The notes under the pieces are model-generated. The model saw only the letters and a program-made list of their open reading frames with translations, did no database searches and had not been told where the DNA came from. Below, piece after piece: positions 10,918 through 17,225 of a stretch of DNA of 24,522 nt. Origin of the DNA: Alkalihalobacillus alcalophilus ATCC 27647 = CGMCC 1.3604. GTDB lineage: Bacteria > Bacillota > Bacilli > Bacillales > Bacillaceae_D. The stretch covers positions 1 to 24,522 of the forward strand of contig NZ_ALPT02000060.1 of the NCBI RefSeq assembly GCF_000292245.2, given 5' to 3'. Each line of letters begins with the position of its first letter. Position 1 is the stretch's first letter. The translations under genes were made by a program, and so were the position numbers.

Positions 10918-12933
<2,016 letters not shown>

Positions 12934-12950
12934 TCACTTTAAAAAACAAT

Positions 12951-13243
12951 ACAAAAAGCCCTCATCCAACATGGGACGAGAGCGTTTCTCACGTGGTACC
13001 ACCCAATTTCCCCTTTTCAAAAATCAAAAGGGCTCAATAAGTCATTTGACAATCTGTTAACGCCAGCTACGTCACACCCTTATGCCTTTTATGAGACACT
13101 CGAATGTAAGTTCCTCCCGAGACCATCTTCTAACGCTGATTTATACCGGTTTTCAGCTCCCCCGGCTCTCTGCACGCAATAACTGCTTATAAATCTAGGC
13201 ATTGTACTCATCTCTTCATCGGAATCCTATATAAATCCATCTT
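12951..13243 (-). promoter_or_regulatory. T-box leader (tRNA-Met-sensing transcription attenuator) of metG
   Basis: Minus strand: Stem I elements CGATGAAGAGATGAGTA and AGAGAGCC...GCTGAAAACCGG. The candidate specifier is AUG at 13126..13124 (GAAG-AUG-G). The T-box sequence AATTGGGTGGTACCACGTG is at 13008..12990. The terminator hairpin CTCGTCCC..GGATGAGGG (12982..12959) is followed by CTTTTTGT. Confidence 0.85.
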
Positions 13244-13333: not shown

Positions 13334-13799
13334 ATTGGTAATGTAATTTTTACTTTCTCTCCATTACGGTGCGTATTATCCAGGATTGGTAATGTAATTT
13401 TTACTTTCTCTCTTTTTCGGTGCGTATTATCCTCAATTGGTAATGTAATCTTCCCTTGCTCCCTTTTTCGGTGCGTATTATCCAGGATTGGTAATGTAAT
13501 TTTTACTTTCTCTCCATTACGGTGCGTATTATCCTCAATTGGTAATGTAAATTTCCCTTGCTCTCTTTTTCGGTGCGTATTATCCGCAATTGGTAATGTA
13601 ATTTTTACTTTCTCTCCATTACGGTGCGTATTATCCAGGATTGGTAATGTAATTTTTACTTTCTCTCTTTTTCGGTGCGTATTATCCGCAATTGGTAACG
13701 TAATCTTCCCTTTCTCTCCATTACGGTGCGTATTATCCTCAATTGGTAATGTAATCTTCTCTTTCCCCCTTTTACGGTGCGTATTAACCGTGATTGGTC
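13334..13799. repeat. Tandem array: 9 complete copies plus one decayed start of a 51-bp unit
   Basis: Units start at 13334, 13385, 13436, 13487, 13538, 13589, 13640, 13691 and 13742 (decayed start 13793), in exact 51-nt phase. The invariant blocks are ATTGGTAATGTAA and CGGTGCGTATTATCC. The 20-nt middle segment occurs in three recurring versions. The last 3 nt are AGG, TCA or GCA. Confidence 0.97.
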
Positions 13800-13832
13800 A
13801 TACTCACCTGCTCTTAAATGGGTTTTTGACAA

Positions 13833-13880
13833 GAAAAAATAAGCATTTGCTCCAATGTTTTTCAAAAGGCAAATGCTTAT
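13833..13880 (-). terminator. rho-independent terminator of the nurA-herA operon
   Basis: Perfect 12-bp stem ATAAGCATTTGC (13839..13850) / GCAAATGCTTAT (13869..13880). It is followed on the minus strand by TTTTTTCTTG. The loop is rather large (18 nt). Confidence 0.7.
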
Positions 13881-13919: not shown

Positions 13920-15752
13920 TCAAGGGCGATCATAAATATGAGCAAATGGTGTTTTGTTTTCCTTTAAATGCCCTTCTACACTTAAACTTTTGAGCTTGTT
14001 TTTCCATTCCTTCACGTCCCATGATTTGGATGTTTTTTGATTAAGCTCAGATAGCTGATTCATAAGTTGAATTTCAGTTAATGGAAGAAAGTCATCTAAT
14101 GCTTCCATTAAACTCTCCGTATCCGTTTCTTTCATTTCATTTAACTCATCAAAGGGGTTCAAAGTATGTGGACTTGAAGAATGGGCAAGGCGTATCCGAA
14201 CCGCCATCGTCCGCCCAATAATAGCTGAAGATACAAAAACATCACCAGAGCGTAAGTACGGGAGTCGTTTACCTTCCTCAGCCGTTAAATCGGTTTCTTC
14301 CTTGATTGTCTGAATATCGGTCCCACGAACCGTTCGAAAGACAAACTTAGAATTAAGCTGTGCCGTAATCGTTTCATCTAATAGAGTCGGTCTTTGTGTC
14401 GCAAAAATCAAAAATACCCCATATTTCCGCCCTTCTTGAGCAATTTCTTTTAATACAGACTTAGCAGGCGACTCATAGCCTTTAGGGGCAAAATTATGAG
14501 CCTCATCTGTTACAATTACAAACGGTGGGAAAAACTCACCTTGCTGTTGCTGTAACCTTGCATCTTTATATGTGCGACGCTTCCCGTACAAGGACCCAAT
14601 TACATAACTTGAAAAAACTTGCAAGAGCCAGACTGCTCCTTGTACAACAACCAATTGCCCGGCATGGATTCCTTGCTCAATCGCTCGAATATTATGTTGG
14701 AAAAGCCCGGCCTGATATAGGCGATTCATTCGCCATTGAATCCCCTTCACAGAAGAGAGCGGCAAACTACCATATTGGTCTAAGAGCTTTTTAAATGTAT
14801 TATATCGTTGGAGTTCATCTCTTGTCATTCCACCATCATTTAAGATCGACTCAAGTTTCTGTTTGCCAAGCTCAATTGCCTCTGCTAGATTGGCGGTACG
14901 ATCACTAAAAGATTGATAACTATCTTTACGTTTATGCACAGACTGAATGACATTAATCATTGATTCTGTTAATGCTCCTGATGCAGCAAGCAAACGCTCC
15001 ACATCACGTGTTGACAACGCTGAGAAATCGACCCCGACATCACGACCAATTTGCACAACCATATAACGTTGCTTATAGTTTGGCACAGTTCCAACCCCAT
15101 CTGTTTGAACGGAAAAATCCATTTCAAAATGTGGGTCAAACACAAGCGTTGGAATTTGTAATTTCATAAGTTCCTCTAACATGACACGTAATCCAAAAGA
15201 CTTCCCTGAACCCGATCCACCAAATACACCAATATGTGGATATTGTTGCATCGCTCGAATATCAAATATAAATGGAATCCCTTGTTGCTGCCTTTTTATA
15301 TCATTTTCTTGGATCGACACAAGCCCTTGTAAATCCTCTGGTAGCGTCTCAGCAACATAATCAGTTGACTTCACTTCGCCTAAAACCATGCCTTTTTTAG
15401 CTGTTGTTGTCACTAGTAATGATTCAATCTCATAAAACTCAGGGTGTCTCACATGAGCCCCTGTTTGTAATGGCTGAATCGCCTCTTCAAACAAACGAAC
15501 CTTAGCCAAATGAATATCATCGGCACCGATATCATAACCAATATGCTCAAGCGTTTTTAATACTTGATCATCTACTAATCCTTTATCAAACCCCATGGGA
15601 ATGTAACGATTATAGGAAAATGTTTCGACAACCTCTCCTTTTGGTTGATTGAGATGGTCATCTTCAATGACAACCATTTCATTCATTCGAAACTTATGTT
15701 CTTTTGAAGCGACATACACTTCATGCTGGGTTGTAACACCAACAACTTGCAT
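13920..15752 (-). CDS. herA: HerA-like (DUF87 / FtsK-HerA superfamily) hexameric ATPase-translocase
   Basis: 610 aa. The N-terminal HAS-barrel-like region is MQVVGVTT..VYV...FRMNEMVVIED. Walker A is GGSGSGKS (178-185) and Walker B is FVIVTDEAHNF (DE 416-417). ATQRPTLLDETITAQLNSKFVFR is the typical HerA sensor/Arg-finger block. ATG 15752 follows the SD AAGGGGGATGA, 14 nt after the nurA stop. Confidence 0.85.
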   Translation of the reverse strand: MQVVGVTTQHEVYVASKEHKFRMNEMVVIEDDHLNQPKGEVVETFSYNRYIPMGFDKGLVDDQVLKTLEHIGYDIGADDIHLAKVRLFEEAIQPLQTGAHVRHPEFYEIESLLVTTTAKKGMVLGEVKSTDYVAETLPEDLQGLVSIQENDIKRQQQGIPFIFDIRAMQQYPHIGVFGGSGSGKSFGLRVMLEELMKLQIPTLVFDPHFEMDFSVQTDGVGTVPNYKQRYMVVQIGRDVGVDFSALSTRDVERLLAASGALTESMINVIQSVHKRKDSYQSFSDRTANLAEAIELGKQKLESILNDGGMTRDELQRYNTFKKLLDQYGSLPLSSVKGIQWRMNRLYQAGLFQHNIRAIEQGIHAGQLVVVQGAVWLLQVFSSYVIGSLYGKRRTYKDARLQQQQGEFFPPFVIVTDEAHNFAPKGYESPAKSVLKEIAQEGRKYGVFLIFATQRPTLLDETITAQLNSKFVFRTVRGTDIQTIKEETDLTAEEGKRLPYLRSGDVFVSSAIIGRTMAVRIRLAHSSSPHTLNPFDELNEMKETDTESLMEALDDFLPLTEIQLMNQLSELNQKTSKSWDVKEWKNKLKSLSVEGHLKENKTPFAHIYDRP

Positions 15753-15766
15753 CCTTTCATCCCCCT

Positions 15767-16789
15767 TTAATATGGTCTTCCTTCTCTTTTTTTACTTAAA
15801 AATCGCTGTTTCAATTCTGGGTCAATATATTGTTCAACTAAGGCCTCGACTAGTTTATCGGTTACCCGCACTTCTCGGTCAATATGATCAAGCCAAAAAG
15901 GAATCCCTCTCCCATTTTTAGGAGTTAAGGTCGCTAATAGACGCGACATTTCCCATTTGTGCTCCGCTTGTTCATCCAACATATCAAACCCCGTTATTTG
16001 AGGGTCTGCCCCTAACCTCATCCAAACGGATTGCAAACCGGCTTTATGTTGGATTTCTTCTATATAAATAGCTTCTCCCTGATGAAGAACCCCAAAAAGC
16101 AAATCGCGATCATATGTATAACCACTTTGCTTCAACGATTGAAACGCTTCAAGGCGAACTAAATTGCTAGTCGTAATCTCTTCTGAGACGCCAACGAGGA
16201 AGACACGCTCAGCTAATGCCTTCTCTTTTAGTTTTTCCCACTCTAACGGAGCATCAATCCGGTAATGATAAAGAGCTCCATCCATCATTAATACTTTCAA
16301 ATTCTGTTCCTCTATTAATTGATAGGCAGCAGTCAGTTCTTGTTTAGCTAGTAGATGCGAGCGTTTCTTTTTCGAATCTTCTCTTTCCTCCTCTTCCGTC
16401 CTTTCATCATCTAATAAGGGAAAATAAACATCCGAAACAAAACATTCATAACCAGTCGTCGTTTTAGCGAGTGCTTGGAAAAAATAAATAAGATGTGGTG
16501 GCTCACCTTTCGTTTGATTAACCGATCCATCTACAGCACCTAACAATCCACCGCCTAGCCAAATACTTAAAGATTCGTTGTCGAATGTTGGTATTTGTCG
16601 AATATCAACATCTGATTCACTCATTTTTTGTCGAATACTATATTTATCTATATTAGTAGACTTATATTTTTGTCGAAATGATAGGTTCACTTTCTTTATC
16701 TTATCTAAAAAGTCTTGGTTAATTTTTAACAATTTTACCCAACCCCTCACTATGAAAATACTTATATATAAAGGTTTTTTTACGCTCAC
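15767..16789 (-). CDS. nurA: NurA-like 5'-3' nuclease (RNase H-like fold), partner of HerA
   Basis: NurA motif order is present: AVDGS (D87), KQELTAA (E151), LMMDGAL (D170), VGVSEEITTS (GVSKxS-like) and GIPFWLDHIDREV (D301/H302/D304). The track start GTG 16789 has no SD. TTG 16732, 10 nt after GAGGGG, is more likely and gives 321 aa. Confidence 0.75.
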   Translation of the reverse strand: MSVKKPLYISIFIVRGWVKLLKINQDFLDKIKKVNLSFRQKYKSTNIDKYSIRQKMSESDVDIRQIPTFDNESLSIWLGGGLLGAVDGSVNQTKGEPPHLIYFFQALAKTTTGYECFVSDVYFPLLDDERTEEEEREDSKKKRSHLLAKQELTAAYQLIEEQNLKVLMMDGALYHYRIDAPLEWEKLKEKALAERVFLVGVSEEITTSNLVRLEAFQSLKQSGYTYDRDLLFGVLHQGEAIYIEEIQHKAGLQSVWMRLGADPQITGFDMLDEQAEHKWEMSRLLATLTPKNGRGIPFWLDHIDREVRVTDKLVEALVEQYIDPELKQRFLSKKREGRPY

Positions 16790-16834: not shown

Positions 16835-16897
16835 TTGACTTGTTTTGGAAACGTTGGTATTCTTAGTTCAGATAGAAAAATGTCGAATAATGACACA
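16835..16897 (+). promoter_or_regulatory. abrB sigma-A promoter with downstream tandem Spo0A (0A) boxes
   Basis: TTGACT (16835..16840), 17 nt, TATTCT (16858..16863). TGTCGAA (16881..16887) and TGACACA (16891..16897) mirror the B. subtilis abrB TGTCGAATAATGACGAA operator just downstream of the start site. Confidence 0.6.
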
Positions 16898-16937: not shown

Positions 16938-17225
16938 ATGAAATCTACAGGTATCGTTCGTAAAGTTGATGAATTAGGACGTGTAGTTATTCCAATTGAA
17001 CTACGTCGTACACTTGATATTGCTGAAAAAGACGCTTTAGAAATTTATGTTGATAATGATCGTATTATCCTTAAAAAGTACAAGCCAAACATGACTTGCC
17101 AAATTACTGGTGAAGTATCTGATGATAACCTATCTATCGGTGGCGGAAAGATTATTTTAAGCCCAGAAGGTGCAAAAGAAATCTTAAAAAGCCTTGAAGA
17201 TTACGTTGCCAAAACAGAAGCTTAA
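16938..17225 (+). CDS. abrB: Transition-state regulator AbrB
   Basis: MKSTGIVRKVDELGRVVIPIELRRTLDIAEKDALEIYVDNDRIILKKYKPNMTCQITGEVSDDNL is near-identical to B. subtilis AbrB (SpoVT/AbrB swapped-hairpin domain). SD is AGGAG. Confidence 0.97.
   Translation: MKSTGIVRKVDELGRVVIPIELRRTLDIAEKDALEIYVDNDRIILKKYKPNMTCQITGEVSDDNLSIGGGKIILSPEGAKEILKSLEDYVAKTEA

Follow-up and report, generated by a model that had tools for sequence, protein, structure and literature searches.

The window analyzed here, a 24,522-nucleotide (nt) stretch of contig NZ_ALPT02000060.1 from Alkalihalobacillus alcalophilus ATCC 27647, carries between abrB and metS two minus-strand genes that encode a NurA-type nuclease and a HerA-type ATPase. 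The nuclease gene, nurA, spans positions 15767 to 16732 and encodes 321 amino acids from a TTG codon at 16732, with the frame remaining open as far as a GTG codon at 16789 (340 amino acids). The TTG is probably the genuine start and the GTG lies 19 codons too far upstream, because a Shine-Dalgarno sequence (GAGGGG, 16743 to 16748, minus strand) is located 10 nt upstream of the TTG and the homologues all start there. A first-pass annotation, made from the letters of the sequence, had given this open reading frame as 15767 to 16789; the frame is real, but its start is better placed at 16732. The 321-residue product is identical, over its full length, to NCBI’s protein of the same strain (100% identity and coverage). 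The ATPase gene, herA, lies at 13920 to 15752 on the minus strand and encodes 610 amino acids; its assignment as a hexameric-translocase ATPase draws on the open reading frame, Pfam, the predicted fold and the homologue alignment.

Only 14 nt separate the nurA stop codon from the herA ATG (AGGGGGATGAAAGG, 15753 to 15766, minus strand), and this spacer holds the herA Shine-Dalgarno sequence AGGGGG. The arrangement indicates that the two genes would be coupled in both translation and transcription, and the nurA-herA gap is short in most related loci as well, with a median of about 27 nt. Forty nucleotides past the herA stop we observe an intrinsic-terminator-like hairpin followed by a T-run (13831 to 13878, minus strand; hairpin 13841 to 13878), composed of a 10-bp stem (AAGCATTTGC/GCAAATGCTT) with a long loop and then ATTTTTTCTT. 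The region folds at −27 kcal/mol (z = −3.76), and the nurA-herA transcript probably ends here; with a loop of more than 8 nt, the hairpin escaped a simple terminator scan. Sequence and RNA fold thus agree with the initial description of two coupled minus-strand genes, 14 nt apart, with their own Shine-Dalgarno sequence and terminator.

With the Pfam family NurA (PF09376), the nuclease scores 106 bits (E=3.1e-30; gathering score, 21), and the match covers model positions 3 to 254 of 254. Its AlphaFold2 model has a predicted local distance difference test (pLDDT) score of 88, and the best fold in the PDB is archaeal, namely, Thermococcus kodakarensis NurA (9x1m_G; E=1.8e-9, TMq 0.56), followed by Pyrococcus furiosus NurA (3tai_B) and then by PIWI and EndoV, which are RNase H-like. 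A profile search of the PDB with the subfamily did not reach any solved NurA (E>0.7), and it is fold comparison alone that links them, so the protein represents a divergent NurA. Across 24 close homologues and 39 distant ones, the latter 24 to 39% identical, residues D68, E132, D151, D282, and D285 are invariant, while H156 is nearly invariant within the close set; together, these six are candidate catalytic (metal-binding) residues. The GVSEE motif is likewise invariant in the alignments. Among 1.84 billion protein representatives, this NurA subfamily forms 176 clusters at 50% identity, nearly all of them 300 to 340 amino acids long, and all of its named members belong to Bacillota.

HerA matches Pfam DUF87 (PF01935, “Helicase HerA central domain”) with 58 bits against 23.2 (E=1.6e-15), with further matches to FtsK_SpoIIIE (E=9e-9) and AAA_10. 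By sequence, its best match in the PDB is Sulfolobus HerA (4d2i, E=2e-15), and its AlphaFold2 model (pLDDT 72) is again closest to archaeal folds, i.e., Sulfolobus HerA 4d2i and T. kodakarensis HerA 9x1m_A, with anti-phage HerAs and Deinococcus radiodurans HerA ranking after them. The model comprises a beta-rich N-terminal region, a RecA-like core, and a helical insert at approximately residues 248 to 363, followed by a C-terminal module (residues 535 to 610) of three helices and two strands at pLDDT 81 to 87 that matches no Pfam family. Within the N-terminal region, where beta strands are predicted, residues 1 to 100 are modeled at pLDDT 32 to 49, and Pfam HAS-barrel scores 13.7 bits, under its cut-off of 25.2 (E=0.067); this region is possibly a HAS barrel. 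In an alignment of 24 homologues, Walker A (GGSGSGKS, G178 to S185, including K184), the Walker B residues D416/E417 in VTDEAH, R442, and the ATQRP and N-KFVFR motifs are all invariant, as are long surrounding blocks.

Both family calls of the first-pass annotation are therefore confirmed by Pfam, the predicted folds, and invariant catalytic or ATPase residues. Every motif that it had quoted is present and conserved among homologues: GGSGSGKS, VTDEAH, ATQRP, and N-KFVFR in HerA and, in NurA, GVSEE as well as D87, E151, D170, H175, D301, and D304 in the 340-residue numbering, which corresponds to the 321-residue numbering used here plus 19. As had been proposed, both proteins appear catalytically intact, judging from these motif residues.

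To describe the locus across genomes, we surveyed one genome per species (GTDB) with a NurA alignment and used the best 80 of 127 confirmed loci, in which neighboring genes were placed by tblastn with the neighbor proteins of the window. In 80 of 80 genome loci, the two-gene pair occupies the same place in the order rsmI, abrB (opposite strand), nurA, herA, and wherever the contig reaches far enough, herA is followed by metS and usually by tatD too. Carriers include Alkalihalobacillus, Halalkalibacter, Halalkalibacterium halodurans, Alkalihalophilus, Alkalicoccobacillus, Shouchella (the Bacillus clausii group), and Alkalihalobacterium, in addition to approximately 35 Thermoactinomycetaceae, Caloramator (Clostridia), and Fuchsiella (Halanaerobiales), the last without abrB. 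Another Bacillota locus reads rsmI-abrB-nurA-herA-metS-tatD, while the order in Orenia is rsmI-nurA-herA, two genes for methyl-accepting chemotaxis proteins, and metS, and in two Tissierellia loci (L089, 6189 to 7951; L090, 6174 to 7942) it is rsmI-nurA-herA-glgB, with glgB directly after herA. The pattern extends to metagenomes. A very divergent NurA alignment (A3) was rejected as a seed for the metagenome scan, being too variable, but a narrower alignment of divergent NurA members (A4) yielded 80 further loci. Here, herA follows nurA in all 68 loci whose downstream sequence extends to 800 nt or more, and rsmI lies immediately upstream of nurA in 45 of the 80. Across the sequences surveyed, the pair is a distinct, Bacillota-restricted subfamily at a fixed, origin-proximal locus, rsmI-[abrB]-nurA-herA-metS.

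The first-pass annotation had instead regarded the pair as an insertion at a variable spot between genes that are otherwise direct neighbors. We do observe abrB directly adjoining metS, with the pair absent, in Bacillus shivajii, Salipaludibacillus keqinensis, and Evansella cellulosilytica, and no remnants of nurA-herA are found in the abrB-metS gaps of these three. Sister genera listed by a MetS search never turned up in the NurA or HerA lists, and the Bacillus cereus group and Clostridioides difficile presumably lack the pair, too. This B. subtilis-type arrangement, which the first-pass annotation took as the ground state, is thus real in some Bacillaceae. Ancestral presence with repeated loss is nevertheless more parsimonious than repeated insertion at one site, because the occupied arrangement spans several Bacillota classes; nurA-herA would accordingly have been lost in the Bacillus subtilis lineage and in several others. 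Nor did the notion of a variable spot hold up, given the same locus in all 80 genomes and at least 45 metagenomic loci, and this survey of relatives points to core lineage-specific repair genes rather than accessory ones. Enlarged herA-metS spacers occasionally contain other cargo but nothing that resembles defense genes: the extra material is made up of tandem repeats, chemotaxis receptors, spore-maturation genes, or an epimerase accompanied by a regulator of the HxlR type. Separately, two Shouchella species (L032, 13079 to 15938; L033) carry an ABC-F ATPase gene and an opposite-strand open reading frame of 219 amino acids between metS and tatD, and the otherwise rigid block therefore tolerates insertions elsewhere.

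The pair also shares the evolutionary history of its neighbors. In a comparison of 68 genomes, identity of HerA to the window protein follows that of MetS (Pearson 0.97), and the all-against-all identity matrices correlate at r=0.91 for HerA versus MetS and 0.86 for RsmI versus MetS. Mean pairwise identity is 0.69 for HerA and 0.73 for MetS, next to 0.57 for RsmI and 0.50 for NurA. When the window genes are compared with those of the closest relative (L001), the synonymous substitution rate (dS) is the same for nurA, herA, metS, rsmI, and tatD (0.30 to 0.36), and the ratio of nonsynonymous to synonymous rates (dN/dS) is 0.023 for herA, 0.028 for metS, 0.062 for rsmI, 0.076 for nurA, and 0.088 for tatD. 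GC content and skew show no discontinuity between the pair and its flanks. Co-divergence, equal dS, and smooth GC together indicate that the pair shares the history of its housekeeping neighbors and is under housekeeping-grade selection. Viewed through these comparisons, it is old, vertically inherited, and strongly conserved in many Bacillota.

A functional lead comes from a sister clade. In Desulfolucanica intricata (L088), a HerA that is 45% identical over its full length, including the C-terminal module, is encoded with a NurA of 29% identity, and the two are followed by a metallophosphoesterase matching SbcD/Mre11 models and by a split SMC-like ATPase matching Rad50 models. The same nurA-herA-mre11-rad50 order is seen in one further metagenomic locus (L092) and in 12 of the 80 scanned metagenomic loci, and none of the loci examined combines an rsmI neighborhood with an mre11-rad50 one. 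Since this operon has the archaeal end-resection architecture, it ties the subfamily to DNA-end processing through conserved linkage of the genes, in addition to homology. We also observe that in L092 (9731 to 11458), the operon runs on into a gene for an ERCC3/RAD25 (XPB)-type helicase.

The reading that we favor, and consider reasonably likely, is that the pair constitutes an ancestral Bacillota NurA-HerA helicase-nuclease that processes or degrades double-stranded DNA ends in genome maintenance. HerA would form a hexameric, ATP-driven translocase on double-stranded DNA, onto which a NurA dimer would dock. Free DNA ends would then be threaded through the HerA ring and cut at the metal-dependent sites D68/E132/D151/D282/D285 of NurA. 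Mre11/Rad50 (SbcCD)-type proteins, which the sister clade encodes in the same operon, may act as partners in a repair role.

Several observations weigh against this genome maintenance reading. The window pair has no adjacent mre11 or rad50, its neighbors being abrB and metS. Bacilli generally have AddAB and RecJ for end resection, which leaves the added value of NurA-HerA unclear, and the many lineage losses show that the pair is dispensable. There is no sign of SOS induction, since a search of 74 loci and the window, reaching 260 nt upstream of nurA, found no LexA (Cheo) box (GAAC-N4-GTTC, at most one mismatch). On the protein side, model confidence is low over the N-terminal third of HerA, and the NCBIfam HerA equivalogs, archaeal (NF040937/NF040819) as well as anti-phage (NF042943/NF042944), are matched only in part, along the C-terminal ATPase segment, with scores that fall far short of the cut-offs (best 68.6 bits versus 800, and 53.7 versus 850); the protein is therefore a HerA superfamily member and not an equivalog of either curated group. 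Finally, the archaeal HerA-NurA has been argued to degrade both strands, possibly as an antiviral activity, rather than to carry out resection (PMC12977600).

The position next to abrB raises the question of a link to the transition state. The divergent abrB gene (16938 to 17225, plus strand; 95 amino acids; Pfam MazE_antitoxin and AbrB_C) shares with nurA a control region of 205 nt, in which a promoter scan places the abrB promoter, TTGACT-17-TATTCT with a TG element, together with its proximal Spo0A operator box (16835 to 16887, plus strand; box TGTCGAA at 16881 to 16887). The Spo0A-box core motif and PabrB have been described previously (PMC3485338). Among 17 aligned species, the promoter/operator block of abrB is almost invariant, and its box is kept in nearly all 80 loci; the nurA-proximal half of the intergenic region is not conserved in the same alignment, and no sigma factor could be assigned to it. 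Four more perfect TGTCGAA cores, at 16579, 16596, 16629, and 16671 (cluster 16579 to 16677, plus strand), are found inside nurA, all within its first 52 codons and oriented like the operator box of abrB, so that five of the seven copies in the window lie within 309 nt. Over the 80 genome loci, the density of TGTCGAA is 4.1/kb around the nurA start versus 0.17/kb in the background.

Two of these boxes, which start 33 bp from each other at nurA nt +97 and +130, are conserved in the nurA-carrying alkaliphilic Bacillaceae. Codons 33 to 35 read ATT CGA CAA and codons 44 to 46 read [AT]TT CGA CA[AT], each in 38 to 40 of 41 species; given that dS exceeds 2 even for neighboring species, this fixation reflects a constraint at the DNA level. 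We considered whether the boxes are a mere by-product of a conserved IRQ/FRQ peptide and rejected this, given that CGA accounts for only about 20% of arginine codons elsewhere in nurA, that residues 44 and 46 flip between I and F and between Q and H, respectively, and that the conserved R34 uses all six arginine codons in Thermoactinomycetaceae. The extended motif TTCGACAAA, the reverse complement of TTTGTCGAA, fits what we take to be the longer Spo0A consensus. Species lacking nurA have one or two such boxes 230 to 300 bp upstream of the abrB ATG, in noncoding DNA, and the boxes may therefore belong primarily to abrB control. Two roles can be read from the box positions: phosphorylated Spo0A (Spo0A~P) would probably hinder nurA-herA transcription through boxes downstream of its promoter, or else the boxes serve abrB alone. 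In the alkaliphilic Bacillaceae, transcription of the pair would accordingly be damped when Spo0A~P rises, or nurA would merely host the boxes of abrB.

From these boxes one may construct a transition-state or sporulation system that acts only in vegetative or early stationary cells, is switched by Spo0A~P through the intragenic boxes, and, for example, clears or processes chromosome ends before asymmetric division. The number and single orientation of the cores, the synonymous-site fixation of two of them, and the Bacillota identity of every named carrier are all in keeping with such a system. So is their location downstream of any possible nurA promoter, which is the geometry of repression at abrB, where Spo0A acts from sites downstream of the promoter. 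Yet we consider this unlikely. Distal boxes upstream of abrB in species lacking nurA may have abrB control as their sole purpose, and intragenic boxes are missing from the pairs of Thermoactinomycetaceae, Caloramator, and the Tissierellia loci. A recognizable sporulation-sigma promoter is lacking upstream of nurA, in a region that is itself not conserved. In both Tissierellia loci (L089 and L090), the nurA start overlaps the rsmI stop, and the pair looks fused into the rsmI transcription unit, which suggests constitutive co-transcription. The alternative proposal in the first-pass annotation, that the abrB-proximal pair forms a sporulation- or stationary-phase end-processing system, comes closer than its defense idea, in view of the mre11-rad50 operon in the sister clade and of the Spo0A boxes at the 5′ end of nurA, but we rate the sporulation link low.

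Another, quite unlikely possibility combines repair and restriction in a RecBCD-like, dual-purpose destroyer of double-stranded DNA ends, which would serve break repair as well as the restriction of incoming linear or phage DNA, belong to the core genome in many spore-forming Bacillota, and, in the alkaliphilic Bacillaceae, be gated by Spo0A~P via the boxes in nurA codons. If true, cells entering stationary phase and sporulation would lower their degradation of linear DNA along with abrB.

A dedicated anti-phage or anti-plasmid defense system, as favored by the first-pass annotation, would have HerA thread incoming linear DNA and NurA destroy it, by analogy with SIR2-HerA and DUF4297-HerA. The ATPase core of HerA does match PADLOC HerA models (best E=3.8e-23, over residues 409 to 523 only) and the mad8 model, solved defense HerAs are good fold matches to the HerA model, the archaeal HerA-NurA study speculates on an antiviral role, and an accessory function would be in keeping with a patchy distribution in which entire genera are without the pair. 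However, defense genes usually turn over fast and sit in variable islands, whereas this locus is fixed among housekeeping genes in genomes and metagenomes alike, and the pair co-diverges with MetS under MetS-like purifying selection. No PADLOC model matches NurA, a tblastn search of 72,556 plasmids and 50,697 phages recovered no NurA homologue, defense genes are absent from the neighborhood, where spacer cargo consists of metabolic or chemotaxis genes or tandem repeats, and the defense HerAs fit the HerA model less well than archaeal HerA does. The proposal of an anti-phage or anti-plasmid module is therefore not supported, and we regard dedicated defense as very unlikely.

In the same search, HerA did recover megaplasmid paralogues, 31 to 39% identical over 97 to 99% of the protein, in B. 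thuringiensis BTB_502p, Paenibacillus thiaminolyticus, and Clostridium perfringens pJFP838A, along with weak terminase matches in phages. A mobile origin of the pair was rejected, given that NurA occurs on no plasmid or phage, that the megaplasmid HerAs lack NurA, and that GC is even. The three megaplasmid HerA genes (L084, 5256 to 7848; L085, 5208 to 7827; L086, 5241 to 7794) encode full-length proteins 34 to 39% identical to window HerA, and the gene upstream of each specifies a product of approximately 207 to 216 amino acids. One of these products matches Bax1-I, two have no significant Pfam match, and none is a NurA, so that HerA seems to be paired here in another, undescribed way.

Finally, a chromosome-handling translocase for replication or segregation, with an FtsK/SpoIIIE-like HerA and NurA as an accessory, would fit the origin-proximal block with tmk, holB, yabA, and rsmI, the housekeeping-level conservation of HerA, its membership in the FtsK-HerA superfamily, and the cell-division role proposed in the literature for archaeal HerA, but it is highly improbable, as the catalytic residues of NurA are invariant subfamily-wide and nuclease activity is therefore under selection, DNA ends are suggested by the operon association with Mre11/Rad50-like genes, neither Pfam nor the AlphaFold2 model reveals a membrane or septum-targeting domain, and the pair is lost in many lineages.

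Downstream of the pair, metS with its T-box leader occupies 10918 to 13228 on the minus strand (leader, 12969 to 13228; Pfam tRNA-synt_1g, Rfam T-box). The leader scores 92.1 bits (E=1.6e-20) against a gathering threshold of 93, and the default Rfam scan of the window came back empty because the T-box falls just under this value. Between the herA terminator and the T-box leader, at 13334 to 13798, we observe a 51-bp tandem repeat of about 9 copies (84 to 88% matches) with higher-order periods of 102 and 153 bp. Its core, GATAATACGCACCG, is present in 9 copies here; the rest of the window and 83 related loci, that of the closest relative among them, contain none. A 69-amino-acid open reading frame at 13656 to 13865 is an artefact of the 17-codon period of the repeat. 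The herA-metS spacer carries arrays in other species as well, namely, 64 copies of a 55-bp unit in Halalkalibacter urbisdiaboli (L005, 11217 to 14709; 98% identity, GC-rich) and 19 copies of a 73-bp unit in Bacillus solitudinis (L014, 11274 to 12628; 99%). These two arrays appear very young, are unrelated to the window repeat, and have the common core GCGCCGGCAGCCGA. The spacer seems prone to minisatellite expansion.

The pair represents a separate and compact NurA-HerA subfamily that spans several Bacillota classes, is conserved like a tRNA synthetase, and is uncharacterized in the phylum; it was overlooked because B. subtilis is without it. Tractable carriers, such as H. halodurans, Alkalihalophilus pseudofirmus, and Shouchella clausii, make the contribution of NurA-HerA beside AddAB and RecJ directly testable, and this question bears on the current controversy as to whether HerA-NurA resects DNA ends or destroys DNA. 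In addition, the Spo0A boxes at synonymous nurA positions cleanly illustrate how a regulatory site constrains the choice of codons.

Among known systems, the megaplasmid HerA-like ATPases of Bacillota resemble window HerA in length, and no closer full-length relatives were found outside the subfamily, but in the three records they lack a NurA partner. The defense systems SIR2-HerA and DUF4297-HerA (PDB 8wiv, 8xau, 9c1m, and 8ziq) share with the window pair a two-gene operon of hexameric HerA ATPase and effector, as well as similar ATPase cores. The window pair differs from them in having NurA as its effector, in its housekeeping locus outside any defense island, in its vertical inheritance and strong conservation, and in the absence of mobile copies. 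The archaeal HerA-NurA of Sulfolobus, Pyrococcus, and Thermococcus (4d2i, 3tai, and 9x1l to 9x1p), a module of nuclease and hexameric ATPase usually accompanied by mre11-rad50, provides the best folds for both window proteins, and acidic catalytic residues and Walker motifs are conserved. In contrast to it, window NurA is smaller (321 versus about 400 to 450 amino acids in 9x1m_G and 3tai_B), window HerA is longer by its C-terminal module (about 75 amino acids), and the pair resides in a bacterial, mesophilic host in the order nurA, then herA, with no adjacent mre11 or rad50.

In the literature searched, bacterial NurA-HerA is described from Deinococcus and Thermus only, where it is ascribed to transfer from Archaea, and no paper on a Bacillota pair was found. 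The D. radiodurans and Thermus thermophilus proteins (7f6d and 7wrw/7wrx) are likewise encoded in a bacterial operon without adjacent mre11-rad50, their proposed role is in end processing and recombination, and their NurA, like that of the window, extends beyond the core at its N terminus. Sequence similarity to the window pair is nonetheless very low (HerA, E=6e-5 to 7f6d_B), and where the Deinococcus-Thermus pair is presumed to stem from archaeal transfer, the Bacillota subfamily is distinguished by deep, phylum-wide synteny and by co-divergence with its flanks.

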